Of a stretch of 50,478 nt of DNA, positions 12,292 to 50,158 are shown one piece after another. The translations under genes and the position numbers were made by a program. The stretch's first letter is position 1. The number at the start of each line of letters is the position of its first letter. Location: NCBI GenBank assembly GCA_963977015.1, contig CAXBMO010000035.1:1-50478 (forward strand). The letters run 5' to 3'. The stretch comes from an uncultured bacterium. Its GTDB lineage: Bacteria; Verrucomicrobiota; Verrucomicrobiia; Verrucomicrobiales; DEV007. Under the pieces are notes generated by a model, which was given only the letters and a program-made list of their open reading frames with translations, was not told the DNA's origin and ran no database searches.

Positions 12292-12810
12292 ATGAAAGAA
12301 CCCGACCGAGAATTCGTTTTTCAACTCACCGACTGGCAGAACCGGCTGTTCGGCTATCTGGTCACTTTGTTGGGCAATACCCATGACGCGCGCGACGTCC
12401 TTCAGGAAACCAACCTGGTTCTCTGGCAGAAAATCGAGGAATACGATTCGGACACGAACTTCGGTGCGTGGTCAAAGAAGTGCGCCTATTTCCAGGCCCT
12501 CGCCTTTCTCCGCGATCGAAAAAGAGACCGGCACATCTTTGACGACGATCTCCTGACCAGATTCGCAGAGGAGGAACCAGAACACTCCGACGAAGAAGAA
12601 CGTGACCTCGCCCTTCGCGACTGTCTGAGTCAACTGCCCGATCAACAGCGGGAGATCATCAGCGAACGCTATCGCAGGAATACTCCGGTCCGGCAGGTGG
12701 CCAAAATTTTCGGTAAAAAGGAAAACGCAATGAAGGTGTCACTGATGCGCATTCGCCAGTCACTTTTCCGTTGTATCGAATCCAAACTGGAGGCTTCAGC
12801 ATCATCATGA
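12292..12810 (+). CDS. ECF sigma-70 factor (Rhodopirellula/Verrucomicrobium type)
   Basis: 172 aa. Region 2 DARDVLQETNLVLWQK...NFGAW, region 4 LRDCLSQLPDQQREIISERY...LMRIRQSLFRCIE. ATGA overlap with the next gene. Confidence 0.95.
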   Translation: MKEPDREFVFQLTDWQNRLFGYLVTLLGNTHDARDVLQETNLVLWQKIEEYDSDTNFGAWSKKCAYFQALAFLRDRKRDRHIFDDDLLTRFAEEEPEHSDEEERDLALRDCLSQLPDQQREIISERYRRNTPVRQVAKIFGKKENAMKVSLMRIRQSLFRCIESKLEASASS

Positions 12811-14414
12811 ACGACCCCGGATTTGACGAGAAAAAATTGCTGGCTCTGATCTCGGACTTATTGGACGGGACGATCGACAATGAGTCGCGCGAATCGCTCA
12901 ATGCCTTGCTGAAGCAAAGCTCCCAGGCCCGTCGATTCTATCGCGGCCACATGGAGTTGCATGCGCGACTGCATCTCAGTTATGAAACTAGCGGGGTCAG
13001 CTCAATGCCTGAGATGTCGCGCATTCTGAAAGGCGGCGATATCGGCGGCGAGACTCAATCACCCCCCCCTCGTGCCGGTTGGTGGATGGGGATTGCCGCC
13101 GCTCTGATTGCTGGTTTGCTGGTCAATGCACTCGTCATCAGCAGGGTCGACACCTCGGATTATTCGGATGGGGAATTTGTCGAATCGAGTGGTGGTGTAG
13201 CGGTTTTAAGCCGGGCCATTGAGGAGAAATGGGCCGCGGATTCGCCGAACTATCGCGAGGGCAACACTCTCCCAGCCGGCAGGCTGCAGTTGGCCTCCGG
13301 CCTATTGCAGATTGAGTTCTTCGGTGGTGCCTCGGTAATTCTGGAAGGGCCTGCGGAGTTCGAGATTTTATCCGAGGAACGGGCCCGGTTTCATCGCGGC
13401 CGCCTGCGAGCCTTCGTGCCGGAACCGGCGCAGGGTTTCACGATCGAGGGACCGGGATTCGACGCGGTGGATCTCGGCACGGAATTTGCCATGAGCGTGG
13501 ATGCCGCGGGCCATGGAGAAGTTCATGTCGTCGATGGAGAAGTGGCGCTACACGAAAAGTCAGGTTCGCTGTTGAAGAGTCTCACCACGGGCATGGCGAG
13601 CCGATCCACCGAGGCTGCTCCGGGCGATTTGGAACCGATTGAAAGCCGCGGTGCAGACTTCGTCGGGCGGGAACAGATGGAAGCGATGTCTCTTCAGCAT
13701 GGGAATCAAAAGGCGGAGATTTGGAGACAGCAGCGGCATCGTTGGGCAGGCGATCCTGACACCCTGGTATTCTTCGATTTCGAGAATCAAAAAAACTGGG
13801 ACCGGCAACTCATGAGTTTGAAAGAGGGCGGACCACGGGGAGCGATCGTCGGGGCGCAATGGACTCAGGGACGCTGGCCGGGAAAAGGGGCACTGGAGTT
13901 TAAACGACCCAGCGACCGGGTGCGGATGGAGATTCCGGGGGAATTTGAATCGGTCAGTTTCTCGGCGTGGGTTCGGATCGAAGGTTTCGACCGTTGGTTG
14001 AGCTCGTTGATGCTGACGGATGGCTGGGACACGGGTGAACCGCACTGGCAGATCAGTGATGCAGGCGAGTTGATCCTCGGCATCAACGGCATGCGCAACG
14101 CCTACTCCCCACCGGTCATTGGTCCGCAGTCCCTCGGAAAATGGCTCCATGTCGCAAGCGTCTTTGACGAAAAAGCGCAACTGGTCTCGCACTATTTGAA
14201 TGGTGAAGTCGTGTCGACCATGAAGGTGAACCGGACGGTCGCAGTTCGATTTGGCGCAGCTGAGATCGGCAACTGGCGTTCAAAGGATCGGACCGAGGAC
14301 CTGAACAAGATTCGGGTTCTTAATGGACGGATTGACGAATTTCTCATCCTGGGGCGCGCGCTGTCCGACAGCGATATTCGCGACATCTACCACAACGGAG
14401 CGCCCGGCAATTGA
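12807..14414 (+). CDS. FecR-like anti-sigma factor with C-terminal LamG/concanavalin-A-like domain
   Basis: N-terminal anti-sigma helix (LISDLLDGTI...LNALLKQSSQARRFY), one TM (WWMGIAAALIAGLLV), FecR (VILEGPAEF...VDLGTEFAMSV...EVHVVDGEV), LamG (GRWPGKGALEF, SFSAWVR, WLHVASVFD, LNGRIDEF). Confidence 0.9.
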   Translation: MNDPGFDEKKLLALISDLLDGTIDNESRESLNALLKQSSQARRFYRGHMELHARLHLSYETSGVSSMPEMSRILKGGDIGGETQSPPPRAGWWMGIAAALIAGLLVNALVISRVDTSDYSDGEFVESSGGVAVLSRAIEEKWAADSPNYREGNTLPAGRLQLASGLLQIEFFGGASVILEGPAEFEILSEERARFHRGRLRAFVPEPAQGFTIEGPGFDAVDLGTEFAMSVDAAGHGEVHVVDGEVALHEKSGSLLKSLTTGMASRSTEAAPGDLEPIESRGADFVGREQMEAMSLQHGNQKAEIWRQQRHRWAGDPDTLVFFDFENQKNWDRQLMSLKEGGPRGAIVGAQWTQGRWPGKGALEFKRPSDRVRMEIPGEFESVSFSAWVRIEGFDRWLSSLMLTDGWDTGEPHWQISDAGELILGINGMRNAYSPPVIGPQSLGKWLHVASVFDEKAQLVSHYLNGEVVSTMKVNRTVAVRFGAAEIGNWRSKDRTEDLNKIRVLNGRIDEFLILGRALSDSDIRDIYHNGAPGN

Positions 14415-14495
14415 GCCTCTCTGCCGCCTCTAATACCAACAGATTTTCTCCCACTCTTTTCCCCTAAGACTGCTGTTTCCAGATCGCCCGTCATC

Positions 14496-16721
14496 ATGAG
14501 ACAATTCTTCCCCTCTACGCTGCCCGCCTTTCTCCTTCTTTTGATATTCGTTGCCAACGCCACCGCCGAAAGTCCCGTGGGTGGCGATCACGCCGAAAAT
14601 ATGAAGAAAGGCATGGCCCTCTTCACAGATTCGATCCGTCCTGCTTTACTTGAACATTGTGTGGACTGTCACGGCGGGGAAAAAACCCGGGGAGGACTCA
14701 ATCTTGCTTCCCGGGAGAGTTTGCTTGCAGGTGGCGATTCCGGAGCGGCGGTGGATCTCAGGAGACCGGCGGAAAGCTTCCTACTTATTCTGATGCGGCA
14801 CGAGGAGGAGCCGTTTATGCCGGCCAAGAAACCAAAGCTTGAGGCGAATCTCCTGGCTGAGTTCGAACAGTGGATTCGGTTGGGAGTGCCCTATGACAGC
14901 CCCCTGGTCGAAGGCACCGGCGGGAATCTGGAAATGACAGTCACCGATCGGGATCGGGAGTTCTGGTCATTCCGCCCCCTGACTGTATCATCGCCGCCGG
15001 CCATTGAGGATCCGTGGATTCGATCCGATATCGATCGCTTTGTTCTGGCTGCGCAACGCCGCGAAAATCTGACCCCGAATCCAGCTGCCGAAAAGCACCA
15101 GCTCGCCCGTCGCGCTTTTCTGGATCTCACCGGTCTGCCGCCGACTCCGGAAGAGATGGAAACCTTTCTATCCGATACCTCCCCGGATGCCTGGCCAAAT
15201 CTGATCGACCGCCTGCTCGCCTCGGAAGACTATGGTCCCCGCGCCGCGCGATTCTGGATGGATGTGGCGCGGTTTGCCGAAAGCTCCGGCTTTGAACACG
15301 ACTCTGACCGCAAGACGGCTTACCACTACCGCGATTTCCTGATCAACGCCTTCAATGCGGATCTTCCTTGGGATAAAATGGTGAGTTGGCAAGTGGCCGG
15401 AGATGAACTGGCACCTGAGAATCCTTTGGCCATGATGGCCACCGGTTTTCTGTCCGCCGGAGTCTTTCCCACGCAGCTGACCGAAGCCGAGTTCGAGTCG
15501 GCCCGTTACGATGAGATCGACGACATGGTCGGCACGACCGGAATGGCTTTTCTTGGGCTCTCGATTGCTTGCGCCCGTTGCCACGATCACAAGTATGATC
15601 CTTTTCCAGTGAAGGATTACTATGAGATGGCGGCGACCTTCGCCACCGCCATTCGGAGTGAGGAGGAAATCGCCGTTCCTTTCGGCAGGAACGAAAAGGC
15701 CAAGGTCATGGTTTGTTCGGAAGGGGTGCCTCCGCTTAAGCATCATGCCGACAAACGTGGTTATCCCCATTTCTACGAGGATGTCCATTACCTGTCGCGG
15801 GGAGATGCGAATCAGAAGGGCGAAGTGGCCAAGCAAAGCTTTCTCGAAGTTCTCATGCCGAACGCCGATGCGGCCGACCAATGGATCGTGGATCCGGAGC
15901 CCGGTTCAAAATCCAGTTTCCGGCGTGCCTCACTAGCCAACTGGATGACCGACACCGAAGGGGGGGCGGGTCACCTGCTTGCACGTGTCATTGTCAACCG
16001 GGTTTGGCAGCAGCACTTCGGTCGTGGAATCGTCGCCACCCCCAATGATTTTGGTTTCCAGGGCGAGCGCCCCACTCATCCCGAATTGCTCGACTGGCTG
16101 GCAAATGATCTGATCGCGCACGACTGGCGGCTCAAGCGTCTCCACCGGATGATCATGACCAGCGCCACCTACCGTCAATCCCCGGAAAGCGATTCCGCCC
16201 GCGTAGAACGCGATCCCGATAACCGGTTTCTGTGGCGTTTCGCTCCGCGCCGACTGGAAGCCGAAGCGATTCGCGATTCCATTCTCGCTGTGTCAGGTCA
16301 ACTCGACCGGACTCCCTATGGCGCCGGGTCTTTGTCCCCGGACATGAAGCGCCGCAGCATTTATTTCACAATCAAACGCAGCCGCCCACCGAATGCGATG
16401 ATCGTCTTCGACTGGCCGGAACACCTCGTGAGTATCGGTCGTCGATCGACCACAACCATTGCTCCGCAGGCCCTTCACTTCATGAATAGCGATGAAGTCC
16501 GTCGTTCTGCGACTGGCCTTGCCAAGCGTGCAGGCGATCTCAACGGAGTTTATCGAATCGCATTGAACCGGTCCGCCCGGGATGAAGAAATCGCGACAGC
16601 GGAATCCTTTATCAAGTCGCAGGCGGCCTGCTACGAAGGCCTCGCCGATGCCCGCGAGCGCGCCCTGATCGATTTCTGTCAGGCAATACTCGGATCCAAC
16701 GAATTCCTCTATCTGCAATGA
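14496..16721 (+). CDS. PSD1 (DUF1553) + DUF1549 + Planctomycete cytochrome c protein, compact form
   Basis: Sec signal, [84 protein letters not shown]. Confidence 0.93.
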   Translation: MRQFFPSTLPAFLLLLIFVANATAESPVGGDHAENMKKGMALFTDSIRPALLEHCVDCHGGEKTRGGLNLASRESLLAGGDSGAAVDLRRPAESFLLILMRHEEEPFMPAKKPKLEANLLAEFEQWIRLGVPYDSPLVEGTGGNLEMTVTDRDREFWSFRPLTVSSPPAIEDPWIRSDIDRFVLAAQRRENLTPNPAAEKHQLARRAFLDLTGLPPTPEEMETFLSDTSPDAWPNLIDRLLASEDYGPRAARFWMDVARFAESSGFEHDSDRKTAYHYRDFLINAFNADLPWDKMVSWQVAGDELAPENPLAMMATGFLSAGVFPTQLTEAEFESARYDEIDDMVGTTGMAFLGLSIACARCHDHKYDPFPVKDYYEMAATFATAIRSEEEIAVPFGRNEKAKVMVCSEGVPPLKHHADKRGYPHFYEDVHYLSRGDANQKGEVAKQSFLEVLMPNADAADQWIVDPEPGSKSSFRRASLANWMTDTEGGAGHLLARVIVNRVWQQHFGRGIVATPNDFGFQGERPTHPELLDWLANDLIAHDWRLKRLHRMIMTSATYRQSPESDSARVERDPDNRFLWRFAPRRLEAEAIRDSILAVSGQLDRTPYGAGSLSPDMKRRSIYFTIKRSRPPNAMIVFDWPEHLVSIGRRSTTTIAPQALHFMNSDEVRRSATGLAKRAGDLNGVYRIALNRSARDEEIATAESFIKSQAACYEGLADARERALIDFCQAILGSNEFLYLQ

Positions 16722-18172
16722 AAGACCAGGACCCAACACCCGCATCACTTTTCTCTCGACGAAACCTGCTCCGCCGCGCCGGGGCCGGCGCCGGAATGCT
16801 CGGACTCGCTTCCCTCTTGCAGGACCAGAAACTCCTTGGTGCCGTCGGCAAAAGCTTGAATCCGCTGGCCGCGAAAACGACCCGCCATTTCGCGCGTGCT
16901 AAACGCGTCATCTGGATTTTCATCAATGGAGGGCCTAGCCAGGTCGATACCTGGGACTACAAACCGGACCTGGCTAAGCATGACGGTAAGGAACTGGAAG
17001 GACTCGATAAGTTCACCGGTTTCTTCGCCAATTCAGTGGGCGGAATCATGAAATCTCCGTTCGAATTCCGGCCCCGTGGCAAGTGCGGGAAAATGGTTTC
17101 CGACCTGTTTCCGCACCTCGGCGAACACGTCGACAAAATGAGTTTCATCCACTCAGGCCACACGGAGTCCAACAACCACAGTCCGGCCCTGTTCATGATG
17201 AATTGCGGCATTCCGCGAATGGGTCTCCCCTGCGCAGGATCGTGGGTTTCCTATGGGCTGGGCAGCGAGAGTTCCGACCTGCCCGCTTTTGTTGTGATGT
17301 CGGATCCCCAAAACCGCGGTCTTCCGAAAGGTCAGGCCGGAAACTGGAGCGCAGGCTTCCTTCCCGGTGCCTATCAGGGAACCTGGCTGAAGCCTTCCGG
17401 CGATCCTATTGAGAATCTCTTCCGCTCCGAAAACGTGCCTCCGCCAGCACAACGAAACCAGCTCGATCTGCTGGCCAAACTCAATCGCGATCACAGTTCC
17501 AGCCTGCCACACGACAGCGACCTCGCCGCCCGGATCGAAAGCTACGAACTCGCCTACCGCATGCAGATGACCGCGCCCGATGCGCTGGATATTCAACAGG
17601 AACCGGAACACATCAAATCTCTTTACGGGCTCGATCAAAAGCACTGCGGGCACTTCGCCGAACAGTGCCTCACCGCGAGACGTCTGGTGGAACGCGGCGT
17701 TCGCTTCGTTCAGATCTACTCCGGTGGAATGGAAAACCAGCTCAGTTGGGATGGCCACAAAGACATCAAAGGAAACCACTCCCAATTCGCCGCCGAAACC
17801 GATCAACCGGTCGCCGGGCTATTGGCCGATCTCGACCAGCGCGGCCTGCTCGATGAAACCCTCGTGGTGTGGGGCGGTGAGTTCGGTCGCCTGCCCGTCG
17901 CTCAGAAGGGCGACAAACCCGGTCGCGATCACAATCCTCACTGCTTTACCATGTGGATGGCCGGTGGAGGCGTGAAGGGGGGCGTCAGCTACGGCGAATC
18001 CGACGAAATTGGACACAAGGCCGCAGTCGATCCGGTGCACGTGAACGATATCCACGCCACCATGCTGCACCTGCTCGGCCTGGATCACGAGAAGCTGACC
18101 TACAATTACGCAGGTCGCAGATTCAGGCTGACCGATGTCGGTGGTGAAGTGCTGCACAAGATCATCGCGTAA
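16718..18172 (+). CDS. DUF1501 family protein (Tat-exported, AlkP/sulfatase-like)
   Basis: SRRNLL Tat motif, AKRVIWIFINGGPSQVDTWDYKP, CLTARRLVERGVRFVQ, WDGH, GEFGR, GRDHNP, RLTDV. ATGA overlap with the PSD1 gene. Confidence 0.95.
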   Translation: MKDQDPTPASLFSRRNLLRRAGAGAGMLGLASLLQDQKLLGAVGKSLNPLAAKTTRHFARAKRVIWIFINGGPSQVDTWDYKPDLAKHDGKELEGLDKFTGFFANSVGGIMKSPFEFRPRGKCGKMVSDLFPHLGEHVDKMSFIHSGHTESNNHSPALFMMNCGIPRMGLPCAGSWVSYGLGSESSDLPAFVVMSDPQNRGLPKGQAGNWSAGFLPGAYQGTWLKPSGDPIENLFRSENVPPPAQRNQLDLLAKLNRDHSSSLPHDSDLAARIESYELAYRMQMTAPDALDIQQEPEHIKSLYGLDQKHCGHFAEQCLTARRLVERGVRFVQIYSGGMENQLSWDGHKDIKGNHSQFAAETDQPVAGLLADLDQRGLLDETLVVWGGEFGRLPVAQKGDKPGRDHNPHCFTMWMAGGGVKGGVSYGESDEIGHKAAVDPVHVNDIHATMLHLLGLDHEKLTYNYAGRRFRLTDVGGEVLHKIIA

Positions 18173-18193
18173 AACGTCACTTCCTGTTTCCGA

Positions 18194-21100
18194 ATGAAAG
18201 CGCCGCGCATCAGGATTCGAACCTGCCTCACTCTGTCAGCTTTTTTGGCTGTGGTCTCAACGTCATCCGGAGATGACGACGCCGAAGTCGATTTCAACCG
18301 CGACATTCGGCCGATCCTTTCCGACAAGTGCTTTCACTGTCATGGTCCGGACGCGGCCAACCAGAAATCCGACTTCCGAATCGATACCTTCGAGCACGCC
18401 ACTGCCGACCTCAACGGAGTGAAGGGAATCGTACCGGGGAACCTCAGGGACAGCGAAGTTCACTGGCGCATTCGGATGCCAAATGACGACATCGACGTCA
18501 TGCCGCCGCTCGATTCGAACCGCGTTCTCACCAGGAGAGAAAAGGAGCTTCTCGACAAGTGGATTGAGCAGGGTGCGAAGTATGACCGGCATTGGTCCTT
18601 CGAAAAGCCGGTAAAGGCGCCCTTTCCAGAGCTCTCCGAGCCGTCGAACCTCGAAAGAGTCGAAAACGCCATCGACCATTTTGTATTCGCCCGGCTCGAG
18701 TCAGAGAAACTTGAGCCTCGACCGATGGCCGATCTGGAAACCCGGCTGCGCCGTGCCGCGCTTACACTGACGGGGCTTCCGCCGGAACCGACGGAAGTCG
18801 ATGTCGTCCTGGCGAAGGCAAAGGAAAACCCCGGAAAGGCCTACGCCGAATTCGTCGACGGGCTGCTTGCCTCAACGGACTACGCCGAGCGCCAGGCGTT
18901 GCGTTGGCTGGATGCGGCACGTTTCGCCGATACCGACGGCTACCAGATTGACACGCCCCGGTCCAACTGGCCGTGGCGCGACTGGGTGATTCATGCCTTC
19001 GACGAGAACATGCCTTTCGACCAGTTCACGATTGAACAACTCGCCGGGGACATGCTTCCGAACGCAAGCCAGAAGCAGATTCTCGCTTCCGCATTCAATC
19101 GCAATCACCGCCAGAATGCCGAGGGCGGCGCGCTCGCCGATGAGTTCTTGGTCGAAAATGTCATCGACCGGGTTGAGACCACCTCGACCGTCTGGCTCGG
19201 TCTGACCATGGGCTGCGCGCGCTGCCACGACCACAAGTATGATCCGCTCAGTCAGCGCGAATTCTTTCAAATGTTCGCCTACTTCAACAACATTGGCGAA
19301 AGAGGTATCGGCAAGGGCATCAACGCCAACCCGACCATGGATTTCCGCTCCCCGCTGGTCGAGCCACCCGCGGAATTGCTGACTGCCCTCGACGAGGCGG
19401 AGGCCGCGTTGAGCGAGGCTCGAAACGGATTGGCGCAGCGCCGAGACGCATGGATCGCCGAAACGGAAATCCTGTTGAAGGAGGGTGAACAGGCAAATTG
19501 GCAAGCTTTTCCCGACTCGCGACGCGCGGAGGTTTCCGGCGGCGACGGAGAACTGACGCGTGACGGCGAAGGCACCTGGCTCTTTGGCGGGCAGAACGTT
19601 GACGAGGCGATCTATGAAATCACCTTCGCCGCTGACAAGGATACCGAAATCACGGGCATTCGCCTCGACGCCCTGCCGCACCCGACATTCGGAAAACCGC
19701 GTCAACTTGCTGGCAGCACGAATGGCAACTTTGTTCTCACGGATGTGACGCTGAGCGCCGTCGACCAGCGCTCGGGTCGTTCCCGCGACTTGCCAATCGC
19801 CCGCGCCTCAGCCACCTTCGAACAGAACGGCTACCCGGTTTCAAATGCCATCGACGACGAAGACAGCAGCGGCTGGGCGGTGTTTGGTCCGGATGTTCGA
19901 CCGGAAGAACTGAGCGCCTACTTTGTCCTCGCCACGCCGGCCCGGCTTGCTCCCGGGGAACAGTTCGAGGTCCGGCTCGCACACCAATCGCGTTTCGTCG
20001 ACCACAACATCGGGCGCTTCCGCCTGTGGTTCAGCAGTGAAGACCTGGGCGAAAAAGTCGATCGCGCCACCCTCGGATCCAAGGTAGTGGCCGCGTTGGA
20101 AACGCCGGCCGGGCGTCGCAGCGGAGCTGAACGCAAAACCCTGACCGATTACTATCGAACCATCGACAAGCCCCTCCGGCAGGCAGGGCGTACCGTGACG
20201 CGAATTGAGCGGGAACTGGCGTCCATGGGGGCGGAAAGCGTACCGGTGATGATCATGCAGGAGCGCGAAGGCGAACCGGTGCCAGCTTACTTGCTTGAGC
20301 GCGGCCAGTACGATGCGCCCGTTCGGTCGAAAGAGCTTTCCCGCGCCGTGCCAGTGGCCATTTTCGAAGGCAGTGATGCAGACCAGCCCCGTGACCGGCT
20401 CGAGTTTGCCCGTTGGATCGTCTCGAAGGACAACCCGCTCACCGCCCGCGTCATCGTCAATCGCGTCTGGCGGGACCATTTCGGAATCGGTCTCGTGGGA
20501 ACCAGCGAGGATTTCGGTGCGCAAGGCGAGTTGCCCAGCCATCCGCGACTGCTCGATTGGCTTGCCGTTGAGTTCATGGAGTCCGGCTGGGACCTCAAGG
20601 CGCTCCATCGTCTCATCGTCACCAGTGCAACGTTCCAACAGGGTTCCGCCACCGATCCAACTCTGTTGGCTCGAGATCCCGGAAACCGACTGCTTGCCCA
20701 TGGACCACGCTATCGACTGGACGGATTCGCCATTCGTGATACGGCCCTGCATGCCGCGGGGCTTCTCGATTCCCGCGTCGGTGGACGTCCCGTGAAACCC
20801 TACCAACCCGCCGGTCTTTGGAGTTCTCTGGCATCGAACGCCAAGACCGAATACAAGGTCAGTGATGGCAGCGATCTTTACCGCAAGAGTCTCTACACCT
20901 ATTGGAAACGTGCCGTGAACCCGCCCCGCCAGTTGATCTTTGATTCCGGCGGGCGCGAGGCCTGCGATGTTGGTGTACGCCGGACAAACACTCCGCTGCA
21001 GGCCCTCGTGCTGATGAACGATGTGACCTTCCTCGAAGCGGCCCGACACCTTGGGAGACGTGCAATTCGTTTCTCAGAAAGCGAATCCGAACGGTTGGAA

Positions 21101-41017: not shown

Positions 41018-42034
41018 TCACCTCACCTCCCACTCAATCCGACGCACCTTGCCGCCGAGGCTCTGGGAGACCAGGGCGTTGCGCGCCGCTTCGTCCAAAG
41101 CCGGCTCCCCTCGCAGGTAGCGATCCAGAATCGCGGGGACGATTACCTGGAGGGCTTTGGTGACATCGGTGTCCGGCTTGATCATGCCACTGCGCGGGCC
41201 TCCGGTGGGATCGGAGAAACTGAAATGATGCGCGTCGTGGAACCAGAGCAGGTGCTTCTCGCCCTCGGGCATGAGCCGGAAGAAGTCCTTGTGACCGTCA
41301 CCGACCAGATCTCCGGTTCCGGAAATCCCCGCAAACGGACCGGTGACCTTCGAAAAACTGTCCGCATCGAAGAAGTTGCCGTTCGCACTTTGCGGGCTCA
41401 GGCCGATGCCCAGGCTGATGCGGGGTTCGGTGAGGTCGTCGTCGATGCCGACCGGCTTCGCTCCGCAGCAGACCATCGCGGTGTAGGCGCCATACGAGTG
41501 GCCGAGGATCGCGATCCGCGACAGGTCGATGCGGCCCTTGAGTCGGTCATCCTCCCGGTTCCACTGCTCGGCGAGGTCGATGGCAAAGCGCACGTCGAGC
41601 GGCCGGTTCTTCCTCGCGACCTCGTCTTCGCCGCACTCGATGAGAGCCTCCCGGAAGCCGATTCCCTGGCTGCGCATGCGCCGGCGGATGTCGTCGGTGT
41701 TGCTGGTGACGTGCTCCAGGCACAGGACCACGTAGCCACGCTCCGCGATCTCGGACGCGAGGGCATACATCCCGTGCCGACTGCCCGCTCCGCCGTGGGA
41801 GACGAGGACGAGGGGGCGGGCGTCCTCCTGCTCCGGCAGGTGGAAGGTGAGGGGAACATTGCGATCCCGCGCCGCGTCGTGGTTCTCAGGCAAGTCGATG
41901 ACCGACTCCGACGCCGCAGCGCCCGCAATTCCCGTGAAGAAAACGAGGACCGCCAGAAGGCTTGCCGGGGCGACCCGGTTCCACCGCGACTTCTCTGCAA
42001 GGACTGACCGACACACCAAAACAGTACAACTCAT
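41018..42034 (-). CDS. Secreted alpha/beta hydrolase (dienelactone hydrolase/PAF-AH-like), start uncertain
   Basis: [44 protein letters not shown] (GxSxG), [13 protein letters not shown] give a Ser-Asp-His triad. Confidence 0.85.
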
Positions 42035-42194
42035 GATCTCTCTAGACACAAGTTGAGGGCAACTGGTTACATATTTGTTGGGTTGACCGCTTCGCTGTTG
42101 CGGGCCAGTTCGGTTATCGCCGGGCTTCGCTCCGCCTGCAAGCACGGGGCCAGAGCGAAGAGGATAAGTACCTCGACCTCATTTTGAACGTGCC

Positions 42195-43499: not shown

Positions 43500-43574
43500 T
43501 GGAACAGGAGGTTGTCGTTCGGGTTTCTTTTGATGAACGCCGAGATCCTACCGGTCTTCCCCAAAAGAAAAACC

Positions 43575-43610
43575 GCATATTGCGTGGAACTTCTGTGGAT
43601 TTGCGCCAAT
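43575..43610. promoter_or_regulatory. Candidate XylR/AraC-type operator (TTGCG direct repeat, 21-bp period)
   Basis: TTGCG at 43580 and 43601 in the divergent xylA/xylR intergenic region. A 21-bp period is typical of AraC-family half-sites. Confidence 0.3.
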
Positions 43611-43618
43611 CTCCGTGC

Positions 43619-44764
43619 GTGAGCCATCAGGTCGCCATCGTCATGTCCGAAGTCTTCCTGCGACGTCTCACCCCGTCGTTGATCCCCTTCGTGCGCCGCG
43701 AACTCGACTACCGGATCGTCAGCATCCACCGCCCCCTTGCGGAATTGGACAAGCTGCTCAGCGACCTCGAACCCGACGGGCTCATCACCGAATGGCTCGA
43801 CGACAAGACCGAGGCGCTACTTGGTCTCGGCCTCGGGATTCCCACCGTCATCGTCGATACCGATTTCACCTATCCCGGCGTCGTCAGCATCGATGTCGAC
43901 GACCACGCGGTTGGCCGCGAGGCTGCTCAAGCGTTCCGCCAGTCGGGCCTGAACAGCTTTGCCTGCCTCGGAAACGGGCAGCCCTACTCGAATCAGCGGG
44001 TCGAGGGATTCCGCGAGGCGCTCGGAGATGAAGCTGAAGTTGCCCTTCACACCGTGTCCGGCTTTGAGGAAACCCGCTACAGCGAATCCTTCATCCGACC
44101 GGATCCCGCCTTGCGGAAATGGCTCGAGGAACTTCCCAAACCGGTGGGCATTTTCGCCGTCCACGATCCTCTCGGCCGATTTCTCTGCGGAGCCTGCCAA
44201 CAGATGAACCTGGGAATCCCCGAGGATGTCTCGGTGATCGGCGCCAACAACGACGAACTCGTCTGCGGCCTCACCCACCCCATGCTGTCGAGCGTTTCCA
44301 TCCCCTGGGACGCCATCGGCGAAACCGTCGGTGAAGCGATGCAGCGACTTCTCAACGGAGAGATCGAGGCGATGGCCTCTGCTCGACTCGTCCAACCCGG
44401 CGGGGTCGTCCTGCGTCATTCCGCCAATCACTTTGCCGTCGACGACCCGATGCTGCGCCGCGCCATGCACCACCTCTCCGACCACATTCAGGAGCCCATC
44501 AGCGTTGGCACCATGTGCCGCGAACTCCGAGTCGCCCGACGCACTCTGGAACGAAAATTCAGGGAACACTATCGATGCACTCCGTGGGAAATGTTGTGCC
44601 AGATGCGTGTCAACCAGGCCAAGAAACTCCTGACAAACTCCAACCACCCGATCTCGCTCATCGCCGACCTTTGCGGCTTTCATGATCCCGAACGCATGGC
44701 GGTCGTGTTCAAGCGCCTAACCGGTATGCCCCCTTCGCAGTATCGGAAATCTTCTGTTTTGTGA
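43619..44764 (+). CDS. xylR: XylR-type regulator (LacI-like sugar-binding domain + AraC HTH)
   Basis: DDHAVGREAA, WLEELPKPVGIFA, IPEDVSVIGANNDE, LSSVSIP, RRTLERKF, AKKLL...IADLCGF...FKRLTGMPPSQYR. Divergent from xylA. GTG 43619 inferred as start. Confidence 0.85.
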   Translation: MSHQVAIVMSEVFLRRLTPSLIPFVRRELDYRIVSIHRPLAELDKLLSDLEPDGLITEWLDDKTEALLGLGLGIPTVIVDTDFTYPGVVSIDVDDHAVGREAAQAFRQSGLNSFACLGNGQPYSNQRVEGFREALGDEAEVALHTVSGFEETRYSESFIRPDPALRKWLEELPKPVGIFAVHDPLGRFLCGACQQMNLGIPEDVSVIGANNDELVCGLTHPMLSSVSIPWDAIGETVGEAMQRLLNGEIEAMASARLVQPGGVVLRHSANHFAVDDPMLRRAMHHLSDHIQEPISVGTMCRELRVARRTLERKFREHYRCTPWEMLCQMRVNQAKKLLTNSNHPISLIADLCGFHDPERMAVVFKRLTGMPPSQYRKSSVL

Positions 44765-44871
44765 TTTCTGCGATTGTGTGGATCGCGTTGCGGTCAGGAA
44801 CGACAAAATCGATATTCTTTTCAAAAACGTTGTTACACTTTTCCCTTCCCACGGAGAGAAGAAACAAGCCC

Positions 44872-45402
44872 ATGTTGTCAGAAGACGATCAGGAAACATT
44901 TACCCGTTTGTGGACCGAAGCTCAGCCGACGGTTTCGCACTATCTGCTGTCGCTCGTTCGTGATTCGGCGACGGTAAAGGATTTGCTGCAATCAACGGCA
45001 CTGGTGCTGCTGCGCAAATTTGACGACTACGATCGCGAGCAACCTTTTCTTTCCTGGGCGATGGGGGTGGCGAAGTTCGAATTGCTCGGCCATCGCCGCG
45101 ATGAGGCGAGGAGCCGGGTGGTGTTTGATTCGGACCTGCTCGACCGCTACACCGCAAAGTGGGCGGAACTGGCCCCGCAGCATTCCGACGAGGCGGCCGC
45201 ATTGCAAAACTGTCTCGCCAAGTTGCCGAAACGCCTCCGCAAGGTGATCCGGCTGCGGTATTTTGAGGATCAGCGTTCCGGCGCTATTGCCGAGGCGCTC
45301 GGTCTGACCGCAGGCAATGTCAGGGTCACTTTGCAGCGCACCCGCGAACAACTTCGGCAGTGCGTCGAGCGGGAACTCAGGCTGGAGGGAGGTTCGGCAT
45401 GA
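44872..45402 (+). CDS. ECF sigma-70 factor (Rhodopirellula/Verrucomicrobium type)
   Basis: FTRLWTEAQPTV, DLLQSTALVLLRKFDDYD, FLSWAMGVAKFE, ALQNCLAKLP, LQRTREQLRQCVE. ATGA overlap with the next gene. Confidence 0.95.
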   Translation: MLSEDDQETFTRLWTEAQPTVSHYLLSLVRDSATVKDLLQSTALVLLRKFDDYDREQPFLSWAMGVAKFELLGHRRDEARSRVVFDSDLLDRYTAKWAELAPQHSDEAAALQNCLAKLPKRLRKVIRLRYFEDQRSGAIAEALGLTAGNVRVTLQRTREQLRQCVERELRLEGGSA

Positions 45403-46742
45403 CGGACGATTCGAAGACTCTCATTGCCGGATGGCTCGATGGTGATCTCGATGCGGTCGGACAGGATCGCCTCGAAAATTGGCTCCGCGAGAATCCGGAG
45501 AACCTCGATCAACTGGTCGAAGCATCGATCCGCGACCAGCAGCTTCGTGAAGCAGTCCAGGTATTTGAGAATCGCGCTTCGGCGGAAAAAGCTCCGGTTG
45601 TCCGGCAGTCCCGACGCCGTTTTCTGCCGACGCTGGCCGCGGCTGCCGCGATCGTTTTGGGGTTGGCTGCGGCGCTTTGGTTGTTCCGCGATGCGCCCAA
45701 TTCCCCCGCCATCGCAAAGGTCGTGGCCGCCGAAAACGTCCGGTTGGCGAATCGCAACGAAACGCTCAAGGTGGGCTCAGCTTTCGCGACGGGGCCGATC
45801 ATGCTCGAAGCAGGCCGGCTCGATCTTCAACTCGCTTCCGGCGTCCACCTCGAGATGACCGGTCCGCTGGAAGGGGAGTTGATCGACGCGATGCATCTCC
45901 GGCTCAAGTCAGGCCGGCTCAATGCGAACGTGGGGGAACGCGGGAAGGGGTTCACGGTCTACACGGATGCCGGTGACGTGATCGACCTCGGCACCGAGTT
46001 CGGTATCGAGGTGGATGAGGACGGAGAGAGCCGGGTCGCGGTCTTCACCGGGAAGGTCGAAGTTCGGCCTCATGAAAAAGACAAGACCCAAAAACCCCGC
46101 ACCATTCTGCTTACCGAAGGCCAGGCGGCCCGGTTCTCGGTGCTCGCGGGGTTGCGCCGCTGGGACCAGGTCGCTCTCGCGGCTCAGGCCGCAGGCATTT
46201 CGTCGAAACCTCCCGCCGGAGTCGTGAAACAAGTTCGGGACAACCTCGGGGACAATGAGCTGCATCCTTTTTACGGCGTTGTCGATGGCGGCATGAAAAG
46301 CGGCGCGCTCGCTTACACCGACAAGCCCAACCCCAGTTGGCGCGCCGCTGAGGGAGAGTCGTTTCCTGACTGGCTCGAAGGCGCTGACCAGATCCGCACC
46401 TACCATCAATTCCGCAGGCGCAACTACTACCGCTTGCATCTCGAAATCGCTGAGCCGGCGGTCGTGTTCGTGCTCCAGGACGCTCGTTTCGAAGCGCCTG
46501 ATTGGTTGCAAAACCAATTTACGGCGACCGGCACCCAACTCCGGGTCGGTCCTTGGAATATCGCCATGGCGGCTCAGCCCGGTGTCATCGTGGAACAAGA
46601 CGGACCCTATCTGACCGCCGACATCTGGAAGTGCGAAGTGCCTGCCGGTGAGGTGATCCTCGGCCCACCGCGCGATCGCGAAGACGAAGTTCCCGTGGCG
46701 ATGTACGGACTAGCGGTCAAGCCACTTCGCGATACGCCCTGA
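45399..46742 (+). CDS. FecR-like anti-sigma factor with an unassigned C-terminal domain
   Basis: GGAGG upstream. LIAGWLDGDL...LENWL, TM (LAAAAAIVLGLAAALWLF), FecR (GFTVYT...VIDLGTEFGIEV...VAVFTGKVEV), then a ~175-aa tail. Confidence 0.88.
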   Translation: MTDDSKTLIAGWLDGDLDAVGQDRLENWLRENPENLDQLVEASIRDQQLREAVQVFENRASAEKAPVVRQSRRRFLPTLAAAAAIVLGLAAALWLFRDAPNSPAIAKVVAAENVRLANRNETLKVGSAFATGPIMLEAGRLDLQLASGVHLEMTGPLEGELIDAMHLRLKSGRLNANVGERGKGFTVYTDAGDVIDLGTEFGIEVDEDGESRVAVFTGKVEVRPHEKDKTQKPRTILLTEGQAARFSVLAGLRRWDQVALAAQAAGISSKPPAGVVKQVRDNLGDNELHPFYGVVDGGMKSGALAYTDKPNPSWRAAEGESFPDWLEGADQIRTYHQFRRRNYYRLHLEIAEPAVVFVLQDARFEAPDWLQNQFTATGTQLRVGPWNIAMAAQPGVIVEQDGPYLTADIWKCEVPAGEVILGPPRDREDEVPVAMYGLAVKPLRDTP

Positions 46743-46766: not shown

Positions 46767-48767
46767 ATGACCAAACCCTGCTTTCTCATTTTGTTGTTCG
46801 CGACCGCGATTCCTGGCGGCACAATCCGGGCGGAATTGGACGTGCCGATGTTTCTCGAAACCTACTGCGCGGCTTGTCACAATCCGGAGAAGAAGAAAGG
46901 CAAAATCGATTTGATGCCATTGATCGCGAATCCGAATGGCAGCGATGCTGGATTTCTCGAAGGTATTCACGATGCCGTCGATTTCGAGGACATGCCGCCG
47001 GAGGATGAAAAGCAGCCGAGTGAAACGGAACGAGCCGAGTTTCTCGCTGCGGTGAAAGCGTTCGTGATCGCAGGCGGTCGTGAAATCACTGAGAAAGCGA
47101 TGCAGCCCGGTCACGGCAACTACGTCGATCACAAAACCCTTTTTACCGAACCGAAGGTCCGTAAAGCAGCAACCCCGGTTCGACTCTGGCGGATGAGCCC
47201 GCACATTTTCATGCAGCACGCCAACGGCCTTGCCCGTGCGCCCCTGCTCCGAGTGCAGAACAACCAGGGGAGCGACGGATTGCACCCGGCGTTCGCCTAC
47301 ATGACACCTCCGCACACGTTTCGCGACCATGCAGACGCGCACCTTTTCGAAGAAGCGACCACGGAACTTCTCTTCGATGTCTGCTGGCAAATCGCGGGAC
47401 TTCAGGTAACGGGCAAGCGTCAGCCATCGGTGATCAAAGAATTTGCGGAGTTGGAAAAGCCTACCGCGGATGACTGGGGTCAGATCATCCGGACCCAGTT
47501 CCATCTCGCGATGCACAGCGAGCCGTCGGAGGAGGAGACCGTCGCACTGATCACGCTGGCCGAAAAGACCCTCGCCGACACAGGCCCGAAGGAAGCGCTG
47601 CAAACTTTGCTCACCGCGATTCTGCTCAAGCCCGAGGCCGTCTATCGATTCGAACTCGGCACGGGCGATCCCGATGAATTCGGTCGCGTTTTCCTCGCCC
47701 CGCATGAGCTGAAATACGCCCTCGCCTATGCGTTGACCGACCATGCTCCGGATGCCGCGTTGGAAAAAGCGGCGGACCGTGGAAAGCTCACGACCCGGGC
47801 GGATGTCCGCCGCGAAGTGGAGCGACTGCTTGCCGATAACAAGGCGACCGAACCGAGGTTGCTGCGCTTTTTCCAGGAGTATTTCGAATACCCGGGAGCG
47901 GCGGAAGTGTTCAAGGATAACCGCCGGGCCAACGCCGTTTTTGCCAACGAACGAATCCGGGACGCTGATCTGTTGGTCCTCCATATTCTCAACGAGGATC
48001 GCGAGGTGCTGAAACGCTTACTTACCGAGGACAGCCTCTTCATCGAAAGTATCCCTCGTGAACCGGTTGAAAGGAGGTATCGCGTCTTTCATCTGCCGGA
48101 CTATGGATTTCCCAGACAATGGAAGTTCGAAGAAAATCAGCCGATTAAACCTCCCATCGGAAAGCGCTCGGGAATCCTGACCCACCCGGCCTGGCTGCTG
48201 TCGTTTTCCGACAACGAAAAGAACCAGGCAATCCAGCGTGGGCGCTGGGTCCAGATGAAGCTGCTCGGCGGGATCGTGCCCGATACCCCGATCGGAGTCG
48301 ACGCAAAGTTGCCAACTGATCCGCACCTGACCCTCCGCGAAAAGATGCACCAGGTAACCCGCGCGGAATACTGCTGGACCTGTCATCAGAAAATGGATCC
48401 GCTCGGTCTTCCCTTCGAGCAGTTCGACGACTTCGGGCGCTTTCGCGAAGAGGAATTGGAACGACCGGTCGACACCACCGGCGACGTGGCAATGGGGGTC
48501 GAAAGCATCGACGGACCGGTGGAGGATCCGTTTAAAATGCTGGAGCGTTTTGCCAATTCCGAACACGTCGAGCAGGTCTTCGTGCGTCATGTTTTCCGCT
48601 ATTTTCTTGGCCGCAACGAAACCGTCGACGACGCGCCAACGCTGATCGACGCGCACAAGGCCTATCGCGAAAGTGACGGAAGCATGAAGGCGCTCGTTCT
48701 TTCTTTCCTGACATCCGACTCCTTTCTCTACCGGCAACTTCCGGATGCCGAACTCGCTTCCAACTAA
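46767..48767 (+). CDS. DUF1588-family Planctomycete cytochrome c protein
   Basis: Signal peptide, FLETYCAACH, MPP, VYRFELG, ELKYALAYALTD, LRFFQEYFEY, RSGILTHPAWL, AIQRGRWV, CWTCHQKMDPLGLPFEQFDDFGRFR, FVRHVFRYFLGRNET, SDSFLYR. Confidence 0.92.
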   Translation: MTKPCFLILLFATAIPGGTIRAELDVPMFLETYCAACHNPEKKKGKIDLMPLIANPNGSDAGFLEGIHDAVDFEDMPPEDEKQPSETERAEFLAAVKAFVIAGGREITEKAMQPGHGNYVDHKTLFTEPKVRKAATPVRLWRMSPHIFMQHANGLARAPLLRVQNNQGSDGLHPAFAYMTPPHTFRDHADAHLFEEATTELLFDVCWQIAGLQVTGKRQPSVIKEFAELEKPTADDWGQIIRTQFHLAMHSEPSEEETVALITLAEKTLADTGPKEALQTLLTAILLKPEAVYRFELGTGDPDEFGRVFLAPHELKYALAYALTDHAPDAALEKAADRGKLTTRADVRREVERLLADNKATEPRLLRFFQEYFEYPGAAEVFKDNRRANAVFANERIRDADLLVLHILNEDREVLKRLLTEDSLFIESIPREPVERRYRVFHLPDYGFPRQWKFEENQPIKPPIGKRSGILTHPAWLLSFSDNEKNQAIQRGRWVQMKLLGGIVPDTPIGVDAKLPTDPHLTLREKMHQVTRAEYCWTCHQKMDPLGLPFEQFDDFGRFREEELERPVDTTGDVAMGVESIDGPVEDPFKMLERFANSEHVEQVFVRHVFRYFLGRNETVDDAPTLIDAHKAYRESDGSMKALVLSFLTSDSFLYRQLPDAELASN

Positions 48768-48778
48768 CTGTCACGACC

Positions 48779-50158
48779 ATGAAACGTAGTCCTTTCACCC
48801 GCCGCAAATTTCTCAACCGACTCTCGCTCGGGGCCAGCGCGCCGATTCTCACGCCACTGCTCGACCGCGTCGTGCTCGGCGCCGAGGGCAAAACCGCGCC
48901 GACCCGATTTCTCTTTGTCGTCGAGGGCAACAGCGTGCCACCGCTTCAGGTTTGTCCCGAGGGCATTCCCTTCGTAGAGCGCGAAAAACGGAACGGATTT
49001 GTCGAGCATTCACTCGATGGCACCACACTACCCACCGCGCTCAAGCCGGTCGAGGAGTTTCGCGACCAACTCACGATCGTGCAGGGACTTTCCGGGCGGA
49101 TGTGCTCCGGAGGGCACTCCAGCGACCACGGTGCGCTTGGGGCCTACCACGCCAACCAGGGCCGCAACATTCAGGCTCCGACGGTCGATGCGGTGCTCGG
49201 ACAGGCTCATTCTGGCATTTTTGAAAACGTCGTCCTCGGCATCTCCAGCGATGGGAACAAAGTCGTCGATTTTAACTGTTCCGCTTCCGCGCGCGGTCGC
49301 AGCATCGCCACCATCTGTCATCCCGACGTCGCCTACACCAGACTGTTCGGGAGTGTCGCAGAAGGCGAAGCCCGTGCCTCCTTCAAGGCGCGACGCAACC
49401 TGCTCGACTACATGAGCAACGACATCAAACGCGCCCGAAAAGAACTCGGTTCGGTTGAGAAGGAAAAAATGGATCTTTATCTAACCTCCTTCGAAACTCT
49501 CGATCGCACGTCGAAACGACTCATCGAAGAGCGCGACGCCCTGAAGAAAGTCGTCCCAGATCTGACCGATAAATATTCGTCAAAGGTCGAGACCGATCGG
49601 CTCGACGCCCATTTCGAACTCGCCACCGCCTCCCTCATCGGTGGGCTCACCAATGTGGCGACGATTTCTTCCGGTGTCGGGTTTCCCAATTTTGCCGTTA
49701 CCTTCAGCGGCCTCGGGATTACGGAGAACAAGCACCGCATCGGTCACGCGCTCTACCTCGAAGACGACCGTCAGGGCTGGGAGTGGTCCGAGCAGATCCG
49801 CGCCTACCATTTCGAGCTTATCGCCCGGACGATGAAAAGGCTGCGGTCCATGCCAGAAGGCAACGGAACGATGCTCGACAATACGGTGGTCGTCTACCTG
49901 TCCGACGGCGCCGAAACCCACCATAGCCGCTGTTTCGAATGGCCCTACGTCGTTCTCGGCACCGGCAATGGCCGCATCAAGCCGGGCGGGCGCTATCTCC
50001 AGTATGGCGACTACGGAGCCGACGGGCATCGCACCATCAACGCGATGCACAACACCCTGCTCCACGCCGGCGGCATCGCACGCGACGACTTCGGCCACCT
50101 CGATCCGAATCTCGACGAGTCGATGCATCGCGGACCGTTGAGTGAGATGATCTCTTGA
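48779..50158 (+). CDS. DUF1552 family protein, Tat-exported
   Basis: TRRKFL, PTRFLFVVEGN, LTIVQGLSG, GGHS, EKEKMDLYL, PEGNGTMLDNTVVVYLSDGAETHHS. Confidence 0.9.
   Translation: MKRSPFTRRKFLNRLSLGASAPILTPLLDRVVLGAEGKTAPTRFLFVVEGNSVPPLQVCPEGIPFVEREKRNGFVEHSLDGTTLPTALKPVEEFRDQLTIVQGLSGRMCSGGHSSDHGALGAYHANQGRNIQAPTVDAVLGQAHSGIFENVVLGISSDGNKVVDFNCSASARGRSIATICHPDVAYTRLFGSVAEGEARASFKARRNLLDYMSNDIKRARKELGSVEKEKMDLYLTSFETLDRTSKRLIEERDALKKVVPDLTDKYSSKVETDRLDAHFELATASLIGGLTNVATISSGVGFPNFAVTFSGLGITENKHRIGHALYLEDDRQGWEWSEQIRAYHFELIARTMKRLRSMPEGNGTMLDNTVVVYLSDGAETHHSRCFEWPYVVLGTGNGRIKPGGRYLQYGDYGADGHRTINAMHNTLLHAGGIARDDFGHLDPNLDESMHRGPLSEMIS

Follow-up and report, generated by a model that had tools for sequence, protein, structure and literature searches.

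Six pairs of haem-motif and Tat-exported proteins on a verrucomicrobial contig probably form two-subunit complexes

Six genes for proteins with two CxxCH haem motifs, each matched by a gene for a protein with a twin-arginine translocation (Tat) signal, lie within 38 kb of a single contig (CAXBMO010000035.1, our C35) of a marine verrucomicrobial bacterium with a 6.89-Mb genome in 51 contigs (95% complete), which raises the question of what such pairs, here called modules, are for. The window, that is, the entire 50,478-bp contig, is the densest module cluster of the genome, the runner-up holding five modules, and its 30 main open reading frames (ORFs) were translated. A first-pass annotation had proposed that each pair is a two-subunit periplasmic complex and that the pairs occupy the position of the SusC/SusD proteins in a locus for sulfated glycans. 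As judged from structure prediction combined with genome-wide gene pairing, each haem-motif protein and its Tat partner probably do form a two-subunit complex. The pairs are not SusC/D-like import machines, and their tie to glycans is a local one, seen in the window but not across the genome, so that a role in handling sulfated sugars has little support. The haem-motif proteins are named A to F, and the module genes are as follows.

14496-16721, plus strand: haem-motif protein A (741 aa; PSCyt1/PSCyt2/PSD1), motifs CVDCH and CARCH, Sec-type signal.
16718-18172, plus strand: DUF1501 partner of A (Pfam E = 6e-152), twin-arginine motif SRRNLL, predicted alkaline-phosphatase (AlkP)-superfamily fold.
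18194-21334, plus strand: haem-motif protein B (1046 aa; PSCyt1, PSCyt2 and PSD1), motifs CFHCH and CARCH, cognate DUF1501 gene non-adjacent.
23058-25997, plus strand: haem-motif protein C (979 aa; PSCyt1, PSCyt2 and PSD1), motifs CTECH and CVQCH.
26003-27511, plus strand: DUF1501 partner of C, twin-arginine motif TRRQFL.
27512-29047, plus strand: DUF1501 partner of B, twin-arginine motif NRRHFF, assigned via paralogues and orthologues.
31082-33817, minus strand: haem-motif protein E (PSCyt1 and PSD3/PSD5/PSD4/PSCyt3/PSD2), motifs CSTCH and CAKCH; the start is uncertain, the longest ORF overlapping the stop of the DUF1552 gene by 4 bases.
33814-35121, minus strand: DUF1552 partner of E (Pfam E = 6e-54), gene upstream of E, twin-arginine motif TRRSFL.
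36908-38299, minus strand: DUF1501 partner of D, twin-arginine motif SRRQAL.
38313-40814, minus strand: haem-motif protein D (PSCyt1, PSCyt2 and PSD1), motifs CYECH and CARCH; the probable start is Met codon 74 of the ORF 38313-41033.
46767-48767, plus strand: haem-motif protein F (666 aa; PSD5/PSD4/PSCyt3/PSD2), motifs CAACH and CWTCH.
48779-50158, plus strand: DUF1552 partner of F, twin-arginine motif TRRKFL.

Translation returned exactly the six motif pairs that the first-pass annotation had given, and CxxCH is absent from the remaining 24 of the 30 ORFs. The motif is rare in this genome (at least one copy in 105, and at least two in 15, of the 4859 other called genes), its internal copy is invariant in 24 of 24 aligned PSCyt2/PSD1 paralogues, and both copies are invariant in all 22 aligned PSCyt3-type proteins, which together exclude a chance origin of the motifs. 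The internal motif of the PSCyt2/PSD1 proteins is always followed by D-H (C-A-x-C-H-D-H-K-x-D-P), its PSCyt3-type counterpart is similar (C-A-x-C-H-x-x-x-D-P), and the latter set combines CxxCH with an invariant Met-Pro. According to Pfam, four of the six proteins (A, B, C and D) are composed of PSCyt1, PSCyt2 (DUF1549) and PSD1 (DUF1553), with PF07583, PF07587 and PF07635 above their cut-offs in all four, and two (E and F) contain PSCyt3 (DUF1588), PSD4 (DUF1592), PSD2 (DUF1585) and PSD5 (DUF1595). In protein F, PSD5 scores under the cut-off (30.8 versus 34.2 bits) and no PSCyt1 match is found by Pfam despite the CAACH motif. The four DUF1501 (PF07394) genes match at E-values from 1e-147 to 1e-158, each product with an RR motif, and three of them adjoin a haem-protein gene; in two pairs, PF07627 and PF07631 (plus PF07624, PF07626 and PF07637) stand beside a PF07586 gene. 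The pattern S/T/N-R-R-x-[FAL]-[LF] is found near the N-terminus of each of the six Tat partners, and the RR motif is present in 73 of the 74 DUF1501 and 38 of the 40 DUF1552 proteins of the genome, which also encodes cytochrome-c assembly genes (2 matches) and TatC. As first proposed, the six partners, four DUF1501 and two DUF1552, match the haem-motif proteins one to one, the non-adjacent B pair included. No NCBIfam model matches any of the 12 module proteins, and the long inserts in B, C, E and F contain nothing that Pfam recognizes at E ≤ 1.

The PSCyt and PSD domains reportedly go back to Studholme et al. in 2004. In their account of the module, Kamneva et al. (2012; PMC3542564) describe DUF1501 together with PSCyt1/PSCyt2/PSD1 in Planctomycetes, Verrucomicrobia and Lentisphaerae, with a twin-arginine motif, LamG-type additions and a function given as unknown; they also propose that it is linked to intracellular membranes. 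He et al. (2017; PMC5615132, Text S1) report that PSCyt2 genes usually adjoin DUF1501 and PSCyt3 genes DUF1552, and that sulfatase genes lie close to the modules (PMC5615132), while Wecker et al. (2009; PMC2754498) relay Studholme's suggestion of one extracytoplasmic function (ECF) sigma factor per PSD1/PSCyt2 gene. The pairings, the two parallel versions and the hint at glycans are already in print, and the window pairs are further members of known families. That these DUF pairs lack an established function, as the first-pass annotation had it, agrees with the published accounts where they treat the module (PMC3542564; PMC5615132), and no functional study of the modules was found in literature dated 2009 to 2024. 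Added here to the module of Kamneva et al. are a predicted interface, a His at the nucleophile position, a link to DUF1800, a nested gene arrangement and statistics on ECF sigma genes.

Proteins of the window served as seeds for profile hidden Markov models (HMMs), which were run iteratively against every six-frame ORF of the genome. They detected 74 DUF1501, 70 PSCyt2/PSD1, 40 DUF1552 and 39 PSCyt3-type genes, along with 135 sulfatase, 49 ECF sigma and 22 anti-sigma genes; the number of full DUF1501 matches given independently by Pfam is also 74. The module pairs thus occupy about 220 genes of this genome, and, among the matches listed, most sampled relatives have modules in comparable abundance. 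A PSCyt2/PSD1 gene lies within 300 bp of 46 of the 74 DUF1501 genes and within 3.5 kb of 57, and a PSCyt3-type gene within 300 bp of 26 of the 40 DUF1552 genes and within 3.5 kb of 33, whereas cross-type adjacency was found for none of the 74 and none of the 40. The haem-protein gene is upstream in 40 of the 46 adjacent DUF1501 pairs and in 18 of the 26 adjacent DUF1552 pairs, coming second in 8 of the latter. Most module genes of the window are joined by start/stop overlaps or separated by gaps of 0-33 bp. Counts of operon architecture are approximate, the greedy gene caller having missed 9 of the 74 DUF1501 genes.

Pairwise identities of the two subunits correlate closely (r = 0.915 across 22 unambiguous pairs; 2000 shuffles gave a mean of 0.00 and a maximum of 0.46), indicating that modules duplicate and diverge as units. 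The closest paralogue of B (56% identity) adjoins the closest relative (76%) of the DUF1501 protein encoded at 27512-29047, and B-like genes in two genomes of other genera, G017 (67%) and G008 (55%), are followed by DUF1501 genes whose products are 86% and 80% identical to it. Given that relatives of B adjoin relatives of this protein, the order in the window is a nested one: B, sulfatase, C, DUF1501 of C, DUF1501 of B.

Variants of the two-gene plan were also encountered. An ORF of 237 aa without a Pfam family separates the B-like gene of G017 from its DUF1501 gene (L074:3552-4265), and several split modules in the genome studied here have an ORF of 144-263 aa in this place. The 'four-gene' variant of Kamneva et al. 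is present, with a PPC-domain protein of ~820-850 aa encoded between DUF1501 and the PSCyt protein at two sites (L113 and L127; G000:C1:16315-21390 and C6:307477-313203) and a PSCyt1-WD40 protein at one of them. In a 907-aa ORF (L052:5001-7724, G000:C30), DUF1501 is confined to the C-terminal 400 residues, the N-terminal 500 being without a Pfam match, and the contig carries no haem-protein gene. A lone DUF1552 gene lies directly 3' of a gene for a fusion of TatC with a helix-hairpin-helix domain (L060/L131, G000:C2:465665-469112).

A complex of the core of A (residues 178-741) with its DUF1501 partner (residues 55-484) was modelled. All three runs of the cognate pair gave a score of 0.87, whereas none of 3 controls exceeded 0.00. 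In calibration, 116 of 157 solved complexes attain this mark, as do 2 of 215 mismatched pairs; these rates apply only roughly here, since the alignments were our own. At least 96% of contacts are common to the runs, and the predicted local distance difference test (pLDDT) value of the partner is 88 or higher. In the predicted interface, residues 563-741 of A face a helical hairpin of DUF1501 (residues 202-283) that is inserted in the AlkP core; the CxxCH region takes no part. A search of PDB sequences gave one match for DUF1501, at E = 0.52, and none for protein A, so that with no related solved structure found in this way, a known structure memorized by the predictor is an unlikely source of the complex score. 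Interface residues are slightly less conserved than the rest (0.43 versus 0.54 and 0.42 versus 0.47), a difference too weak for a claim of specificity. Exclusive pairing, co-diversification and the modelled complex (0.87 versus 0.00) together support the two-subunit arrangement put forward in the first-pass annotation.

The DUF1501 model built from 24 paralogues (pLDDT 82.1) resembles ENPP6 (Z 19.9, root-mean-square deviation (rmsd) 2.9, 243 residues aligned), the Xac nucleotide pyrophosphatase/phosphodiesterase (NPP; Z 19.8, rmsd 3.1, 242 aligned), PafA (Z 19.2, rmsd 3.9, 279 aligned) and choline sulfatase (Z 18.7, rmsd 3.7, 249 aligned), and Foldseek retrieves sulfatases at E = 3e-7. On the strength of this model, DUF1501 has the fold of the AlkP superfamily. 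At the level of sequence profiles, the sulfatase matches of DUF1501 are weak (best E = 0.0055), and Pfam yields neither a Sulfatase (PF00884, E ≤ 0.001) nor a Phosphodiest match. D80, H154, D345, H347, E388, R391 and H405 are invariant across the 24 diverse paralogues and D404 nearly so. The invariant Asp and His residues follow the order of the two-metal site of alkaline phosphatase (AP) and NPP enzymes, in which D80, D345/H347 and D404/H405 would be the metal ligands. In a profile alignment with the sulfatases of the window (probability 74.6%, E = 2.7e-5), H154-S-P-A falls on C-S-P-A-R and E388 on the metal-binding Asp. The formylglycine motif C/S-x-P-x-R of S1 sulfatases is absent from DUF1501, which has His in 24 of 24 paralogues; an invariant His at the position of formylglycine (Ser/Thr in AP and NPP enzymes) implies that the Tat subunit is not an ordinary sulfatase. 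DUF1552 is homologous to DUF1501 (hhalign 99.1%, E = 6e-19, 360 columns), and its invariant H89 aligns with H154.

Protein A was modelled with AlphaFold2 (pLDDT 79.9). Its residues 38-134 (PSCyt1) resemble c-type cytochromes (FoxE: Z 7.8, rmsd 2.9, 91 residues aligned). Foldseek found no match at E ≤ 0.001 for the whole 741-residue model, and a wide structural search matched nothing beyond the PSCyt1 domain and 60 helical residues at one end (Z ≤ 5.6), leaving the core unmatched in the PDB; the helical core may still have a known fold, as domains were searched only within the whole model. A search of the ESM Atlas returned members of the same family only. The C-terminus of PSD1 is homologous to that of the PSCyt3-type proteins (DUF1585 region; 97.8%, E = 1e-12, 106 columns), so that, with DUF1501 and DUF1552 also homologous (99.1%), the two parallel versions recognized in the first-pass annotation are related in both subunits. 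PSD1 further aligns with the C-terminal half of DUF1800 (hhalign 90.5%, E = 1.4e-6, 204 columns), and residues 563-741 of A, its side of the predicted interface, are the region common to the PSCyt3 type and DUF1800. A direct homology of PSCyt3-type proteins and DUF1800 was set aside, the probability being just 27%.

DUF1800-DUF1501 operons have been described in Proteobacteria and others (Goncalves et al., 2016; PMC5122149). DUF1800 occurs in 21 of the 81 sampled genomes of the phylum, and in 9 of 10 DUF1800 loci DUF1501 is encoded directly downstream and CxxCH is absent. Pfam did not bear out what looked like a fusion of DUF1800 with DUF1501 (L081). DUF1800 was also considered as the partner of DUF1501 genes that lack a haem-protein gene nearby and was rejected, as there are 0 DUF1800 matches in this genome (95% complete) and the neighbours of these 'orphan' genes are diverse.

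On balance we favour, with moderate confidence, the reading in which each pair is a periplasmic heterodimer of an AlkP-fold Tat metalloenzyme and a Sec-exported haem protein, specific for its substrate and often under ECF control of its own. The Tat subunit, DUF1501 or DUF1552, would be the catalytic one, a metal-dependent enzyme of the AlkP superfamily with His at the nucleophile position and an unusual chemistry. The all-helical PSCyt/PSD protein would be exported by Sec, be loaded with one or two haems of c type on the periplasmic side and clamp the helical hairpin of the Tat enzyme with its C-terminal PSD domain. Given that this docking domain is common to the PSCyt3 type and to haem-less DUF1800, the haems and any sugar-binding inserts appear to be add-ons; the former would serve electron transfer or redox sensing and the latter, in some copies, substrate recruitment. 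The pairs would be self-contained, substrate-specific units, duplicated about 110 times in this genome, many of them switched by their own pair of ECF sigma and FecR-type anti-sigma, whose regulon would include the module. This structural hypothesis, which combines a docking domain and the hairpin that it clamps with a His in place of the nucleophile and with the haem-less DUF1800 relatives, can be tested by ordinary biochemistry in planctomycetes or verrucomicrobia that are amenable to genetics.

Several observations weigh against this reading. The assignment of His to the place of the nucleophile rests on the 74.6% profile alignment and on residue order; the complex model covers one cognate pair, A with its DUF1501, and no non-cognate pair; and co-diversification is expected of any jointly duplicated pair of genes. 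Furthermore, a haem-protein gene is missing from the 3.5 kb around 17 of the 74 DUF1501 and 7 of the 40 DUF1552 genes, whose neighbours are heterogeneous, which suggests that the Tat subunit may work alone or in trans. Internal CxxCH alone is found in 25 of the 70 PSCyt2/PSD1 proteins, so that the N-terminal cytochrome domain is dispensable and, considering also the CxxCH-free DUF1800 partners, the haem may be less than central and any redox chemistry accessory. AlkP-fold enzymes are not known to work with a redox partner.

The same evidence could be read more plainly, with the Tat subunit as a hydrolase or esterase, the PSCyt/PSD protein as its scaffold or chaperone, and CxxCH as structural, metal-binding or vestigial, with no electron transfer. 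This would fit the haem-less DUF1800 in the same partner position with the same docking domain, the lack of the N-terminal cytochrome domain in 25 of 70 PSCyt2/PSD1 proteins, the location of the CxxCH region outside the predicted interface, and the rest of the AlkP superfamily, in which no characterised enzyme is known to be redox-active. Against it stand the internal CxxCH, which is invariant in 24/24 and 22/22 proteins and followed by a conserved D-H or D-P, the cytochrome-c-like fold of PSCyt1, with CxxCH and an invariant Met, and the exported thiol-redoxin gene in the run of module E. We regard the plain hydrolase as unlikely.

Further alternatives turn on the surroundings of the modules, for which the other features of the window are needed.

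7089-9917: polysaccharide lyase of PL8 type (Pfam and NCBIfam).
12292-12810, plus strand: ECF sigma factor (Sigma70_r2/r4; TIGR02989, 'Rhodopirellula/Verrucomicrobium family', 148.5 bits versus a cut-off of 124.55).
12771-14414, plus strand: FecR-like anti-sigma, single-pass (hydrophobic segment ~103-123), with a C-terminal LamG (concanavalin-like) domain (Laminin_G_3 E = 3e-13; weak FecR match, E = 0.0016).
21324-23024, plus strand: S1-type sulfatase inside the operon (Sulfatase E = 3e-51), its ORF start overlapping the end of B by 11 bases.
29538-30284, minus strand: exported AhpC/TSA redoxin, TlpA/ResA-like (AhpC-TSA E = 9e-33; ResA model below cut-off).
41018-42145, minus strand: alpha/beta-hydrolase (Pfam), on the same strand as D and directly upstream of it.
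42195-43499, minus strand: xylose isomerase, xylA (TIGR02630, 678.7 bits versus a cut-off of 533).
43499-44764, plus strand: AraC regulator with a sugar-binding, periplasmic-binding-protein-like domain (Peripla_BP_3 and HTH_18), its stop overlapping the start of the next ECF sigma gene.
44761-45402, plus strand: second ECF sigma factor (TIGR02989).
45360-46742, plus strand: second FecR anti-sigma, upstream of F.

The stretch 12292-29047 holds nine tightly packed genes, all on the plus strand, with an ECF sigma gene first. The redoxin gene closes a minus-strand run opened by the DUF1552 gene at 33814-35121, and by this position it would belong to module E; an Imm33-like protein and the redoxin are encoded after module E on the same strand (29538-31050, minus). 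A secreted 483-aa protein is encoded between two modules (35398-36849, plus strand), its sole family match being a sub-threshold one to neutral ceramidase (E = 8e-5). Promoter and terminator scans returned sites no more frequent than in shuffled sequence.

Association with ECF sigma genes extends beyond the window. Of the 74 DUF1501 genes, 23 have an ECF gene within 10 kb (random mean 10.2), as have 15 of the 40 DUF1552 genes (random mean 5.3), values reached in 0 of 300 simulations each, and ECF genes make up 14 of 220 module neighbours versus 38 of 5252 genes overall. Of the 49 ECF genes, 13 are followed on the same strand by an anti-sigma gene and then a module gene, and seven more by a module gene alone. 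This enrichment of ECF and anti-sigma genes beside modules, together with the position, right after the anti-sigma gene, of the signal transducer in FecIRA-type systems, would be compatible with pairs that act as sensors, the AlkP-like subunit binding a ligand and the complex signalling to the FecR-type anti-sigma to free the ECF sigma. We consider this improbable, as the arrangement involves ~20 of 49 ECF genes and a minority of ~114 modules, most of which have no sigma gene nearby, the anti-sigmas have periplasmic FecR/LamG domains of their own, and none of the metal-site residues varies among the 24 diverse paralogues, as would be expected for a catalyst.

A yet smaller probability attaches to the view that there is no physical complex at all and that the genes are merely co-regulated and co-duplicated, their products acting separately. 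Joint duplication alone would yield co-diversification, and roughly one Tat gene in five stands by itself. Nevertheless, the score of the cognate model (0.87, against 0.00 for the best control), the docking domain as the sole region conserved across all three partner families, and the strict type-specific adjacency with start/stop overlaps argue for a complex.

The glycan context has a local and a genome-wide side. As stated in the first-pass annotation, the module genes of the window are interleaved with sulfatases, the PL8 lyase and xylA, on which Pfam and NCBIfam matches agree; apart from the modules, the window holds five sulfatases, the PL8-type lyase, xylose isomerase and two AraC-type regulators. 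A LamG-bearing anti-sigma precedes A, a sulfatase is translationally coupled to B, D follows xylA and the alpha/beta-hydrolase (gaps of 49 bp and at most ~200 bp), and the sugar-binding regulator overlaps the second ECF gene. The run from xylA through the hydrolase and D to its DUF1501, with the divergent AraC regulator, hints that two modules are under xylose-linked control. All six copies in the window are tied to sugar catabolism by their local wiring.

Genome-wide, the numbers speak against a role in glycan breakdown. Of the 74 DUF1501 genes, 19 have a sulfatase gene within 5 kb (random mean 15.1; 19 was attained in 45 of 300 simulations) and 25 have one within 10 kb (23.1 random); for DUF1552 the 5-kb figure is 7 of 40 (7.9 expected). 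Sulfatases make up 8 of 220 co-directional module neighbours versus 125 of 5252 genes overall. Among 44 neighbours in 20 module-containing gene runs drawn at random from 77, three or four are related to carbohydrates or sulfatases (a pectate lyase, a GlcN6P-isomerase/PIG-L, an FGE-sulfatase domain and perhaps a GDSL esterase); eleven lack a family assignment, and the others are mostly housekeeping or unrelated genes. The sulfatase neighbourhood, often quoted as a clue to function, is thus not above chance in this genome, and the association with ECF sigmas is the stronger one. The predicted enrichment of modules near glycan-degrading genes was not borne out, sulfatase proximity being at chance level; the description as a sulfated-glycan locus holds for the local context in the window and does not extend to the genome, where module neighbours are mostly non-glycan.

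The sulfatase embedded between B and C has 24 homologues in relatives, 3 of them with a module gene within 1.5 kb, and one of its two closest homologues (71% and 68%) is module-flanked. The order haem protein (B-like), sulfatase, DUF1501 recurs in G008, and three further split modules of the genome, of 19 listed, enclose a sulfatase. The 71% homologue (L088, G013:C133:60687-62195) has an in-frame TGA and is located among other sulfatases, outside any module. A gene with an FGE-sulfatase domain (formylglycine-generating-enzyme-like) is part of the run of a DUF1552 module (L125:1-999, G000:C6:255019-256017).

As to the SusC/D position, no TonB receptor, SusD or transporter family is matched at E ≤ 0.001 among the 30 ORFs, in agreement with the first-pass annotation. 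An adjacent PF00593-PF07980 pair, the mark of SusC/SusD, is likewise absent from them, and of FecI/FecR/FecA-type signalling the window contains sigma and anti-sigma without a TonB-dependent transducer. With 4 TonB-dependent receptor and 0 SusD matches in the genome (95% complete), the organism clearly does not use SusC/D. The claim that the pairs occupy the SusC/D position stands as far as gene order is concerned (ECF sigma, anti-sigma, pair) and fails for the proteins, which have no barrel or transporter features. That the pairs replace SusC/SusD in this lineage, capturing sulfated glycans at the envelope and passing them on for import, could draw on that order, which mirrors the one in some Bacteroidota loci, on the contrast of 4 and 0 matches with 74 and 40 modules, on the lack of a transporter among the window ORFs, on the LamG domain of the anti-sigma and on carbohydrate-binding modules reported in some PSCyt proteins (PMC5615132). 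We nonetheless consider it very improbable, since neither subunit matches a beta-barrel or membrane-transport family, one is an enzyme fold with conserved metal-site residues and the other looks soluble and helical with a Sec signal, He et al. predicted periplasmic or cytoplasmic locations where they discuss these proteins (PMC5615132), sulfatases show no genome-wide association and neighbours are mostly non-glycan.

The favoured heterodimer can be extended into a broader conjecture, possible in our view though doubtful: the pairs might be a very large class of periplasmic haem-coupled AlkP-fold enzymes with His in place of the nucleophile. They might, for example, split sulfate or phosphate esters of sugar-derived substrates independently of formylglycine and possibly by oxidation. 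Bacteria of the Planctomycetes-Verrucomicrobia-Chlamydiae (PVC) group would use hundreds of them as catabolic plug-ins, many with a private ECF switch, instead of SusC/D loci, and DUF1800-DUF1501 would represent the older core.

Compared with known systems, the modules share with SusC/SusD and FecI/FecR/FecA loci an ECF sigma and a FecR-type anti-sigma ahead of a two-gene unit in a glycan-degrading neighbourhood, but those of the window lack a TonB-dependent barrel and a SusD-like protein. SoxCD, SorAB, flavocytochrome c sulfide dehydrogenase and NapAB combine a Tat-exported catalytic subunit with a Sec-exported, often dihaem, c-type cytochrome subunit, and the catalytic subunits of such enzymes carry Mo, FAD or Fe-S cofactors. 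The division of labour and the export routes are alike, which makes these enzymes a working analogy rather than relatives, given that DUF1501 has a hydrolase-type fold without a known redox cofactor. With S1 sulfatases and NPP/PafA enzymes, DUF1501 has in common the core fold, Asp and His residues at metal-site positions and a D-x-x-G...TLVV...[DE]-x-G segment, and it differs in the invariant His, Tat export and the helical hairpin that serves as a docking insert. DUF1800-DUF1501 operons likewise encode a Tat-signal DUF1501 after a helical partner, the C-terminal half of which is homologous to PSD1, although DUF1800 lacks CxxCH. Two window pairs agree in families and adjacency with 'group III' of He et al. 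(PSCyt3/PSD4 (+PSD2/3/5) with DUF1552), whereas sulfatase proximity in this genome is not above chance and gene order is less fixed. The other four pairs, with the same Pfam families, a twin-arginine DUF1501, adjacency and LamG-type domains nearby, show no essential difference from the module of Kamneva et al.

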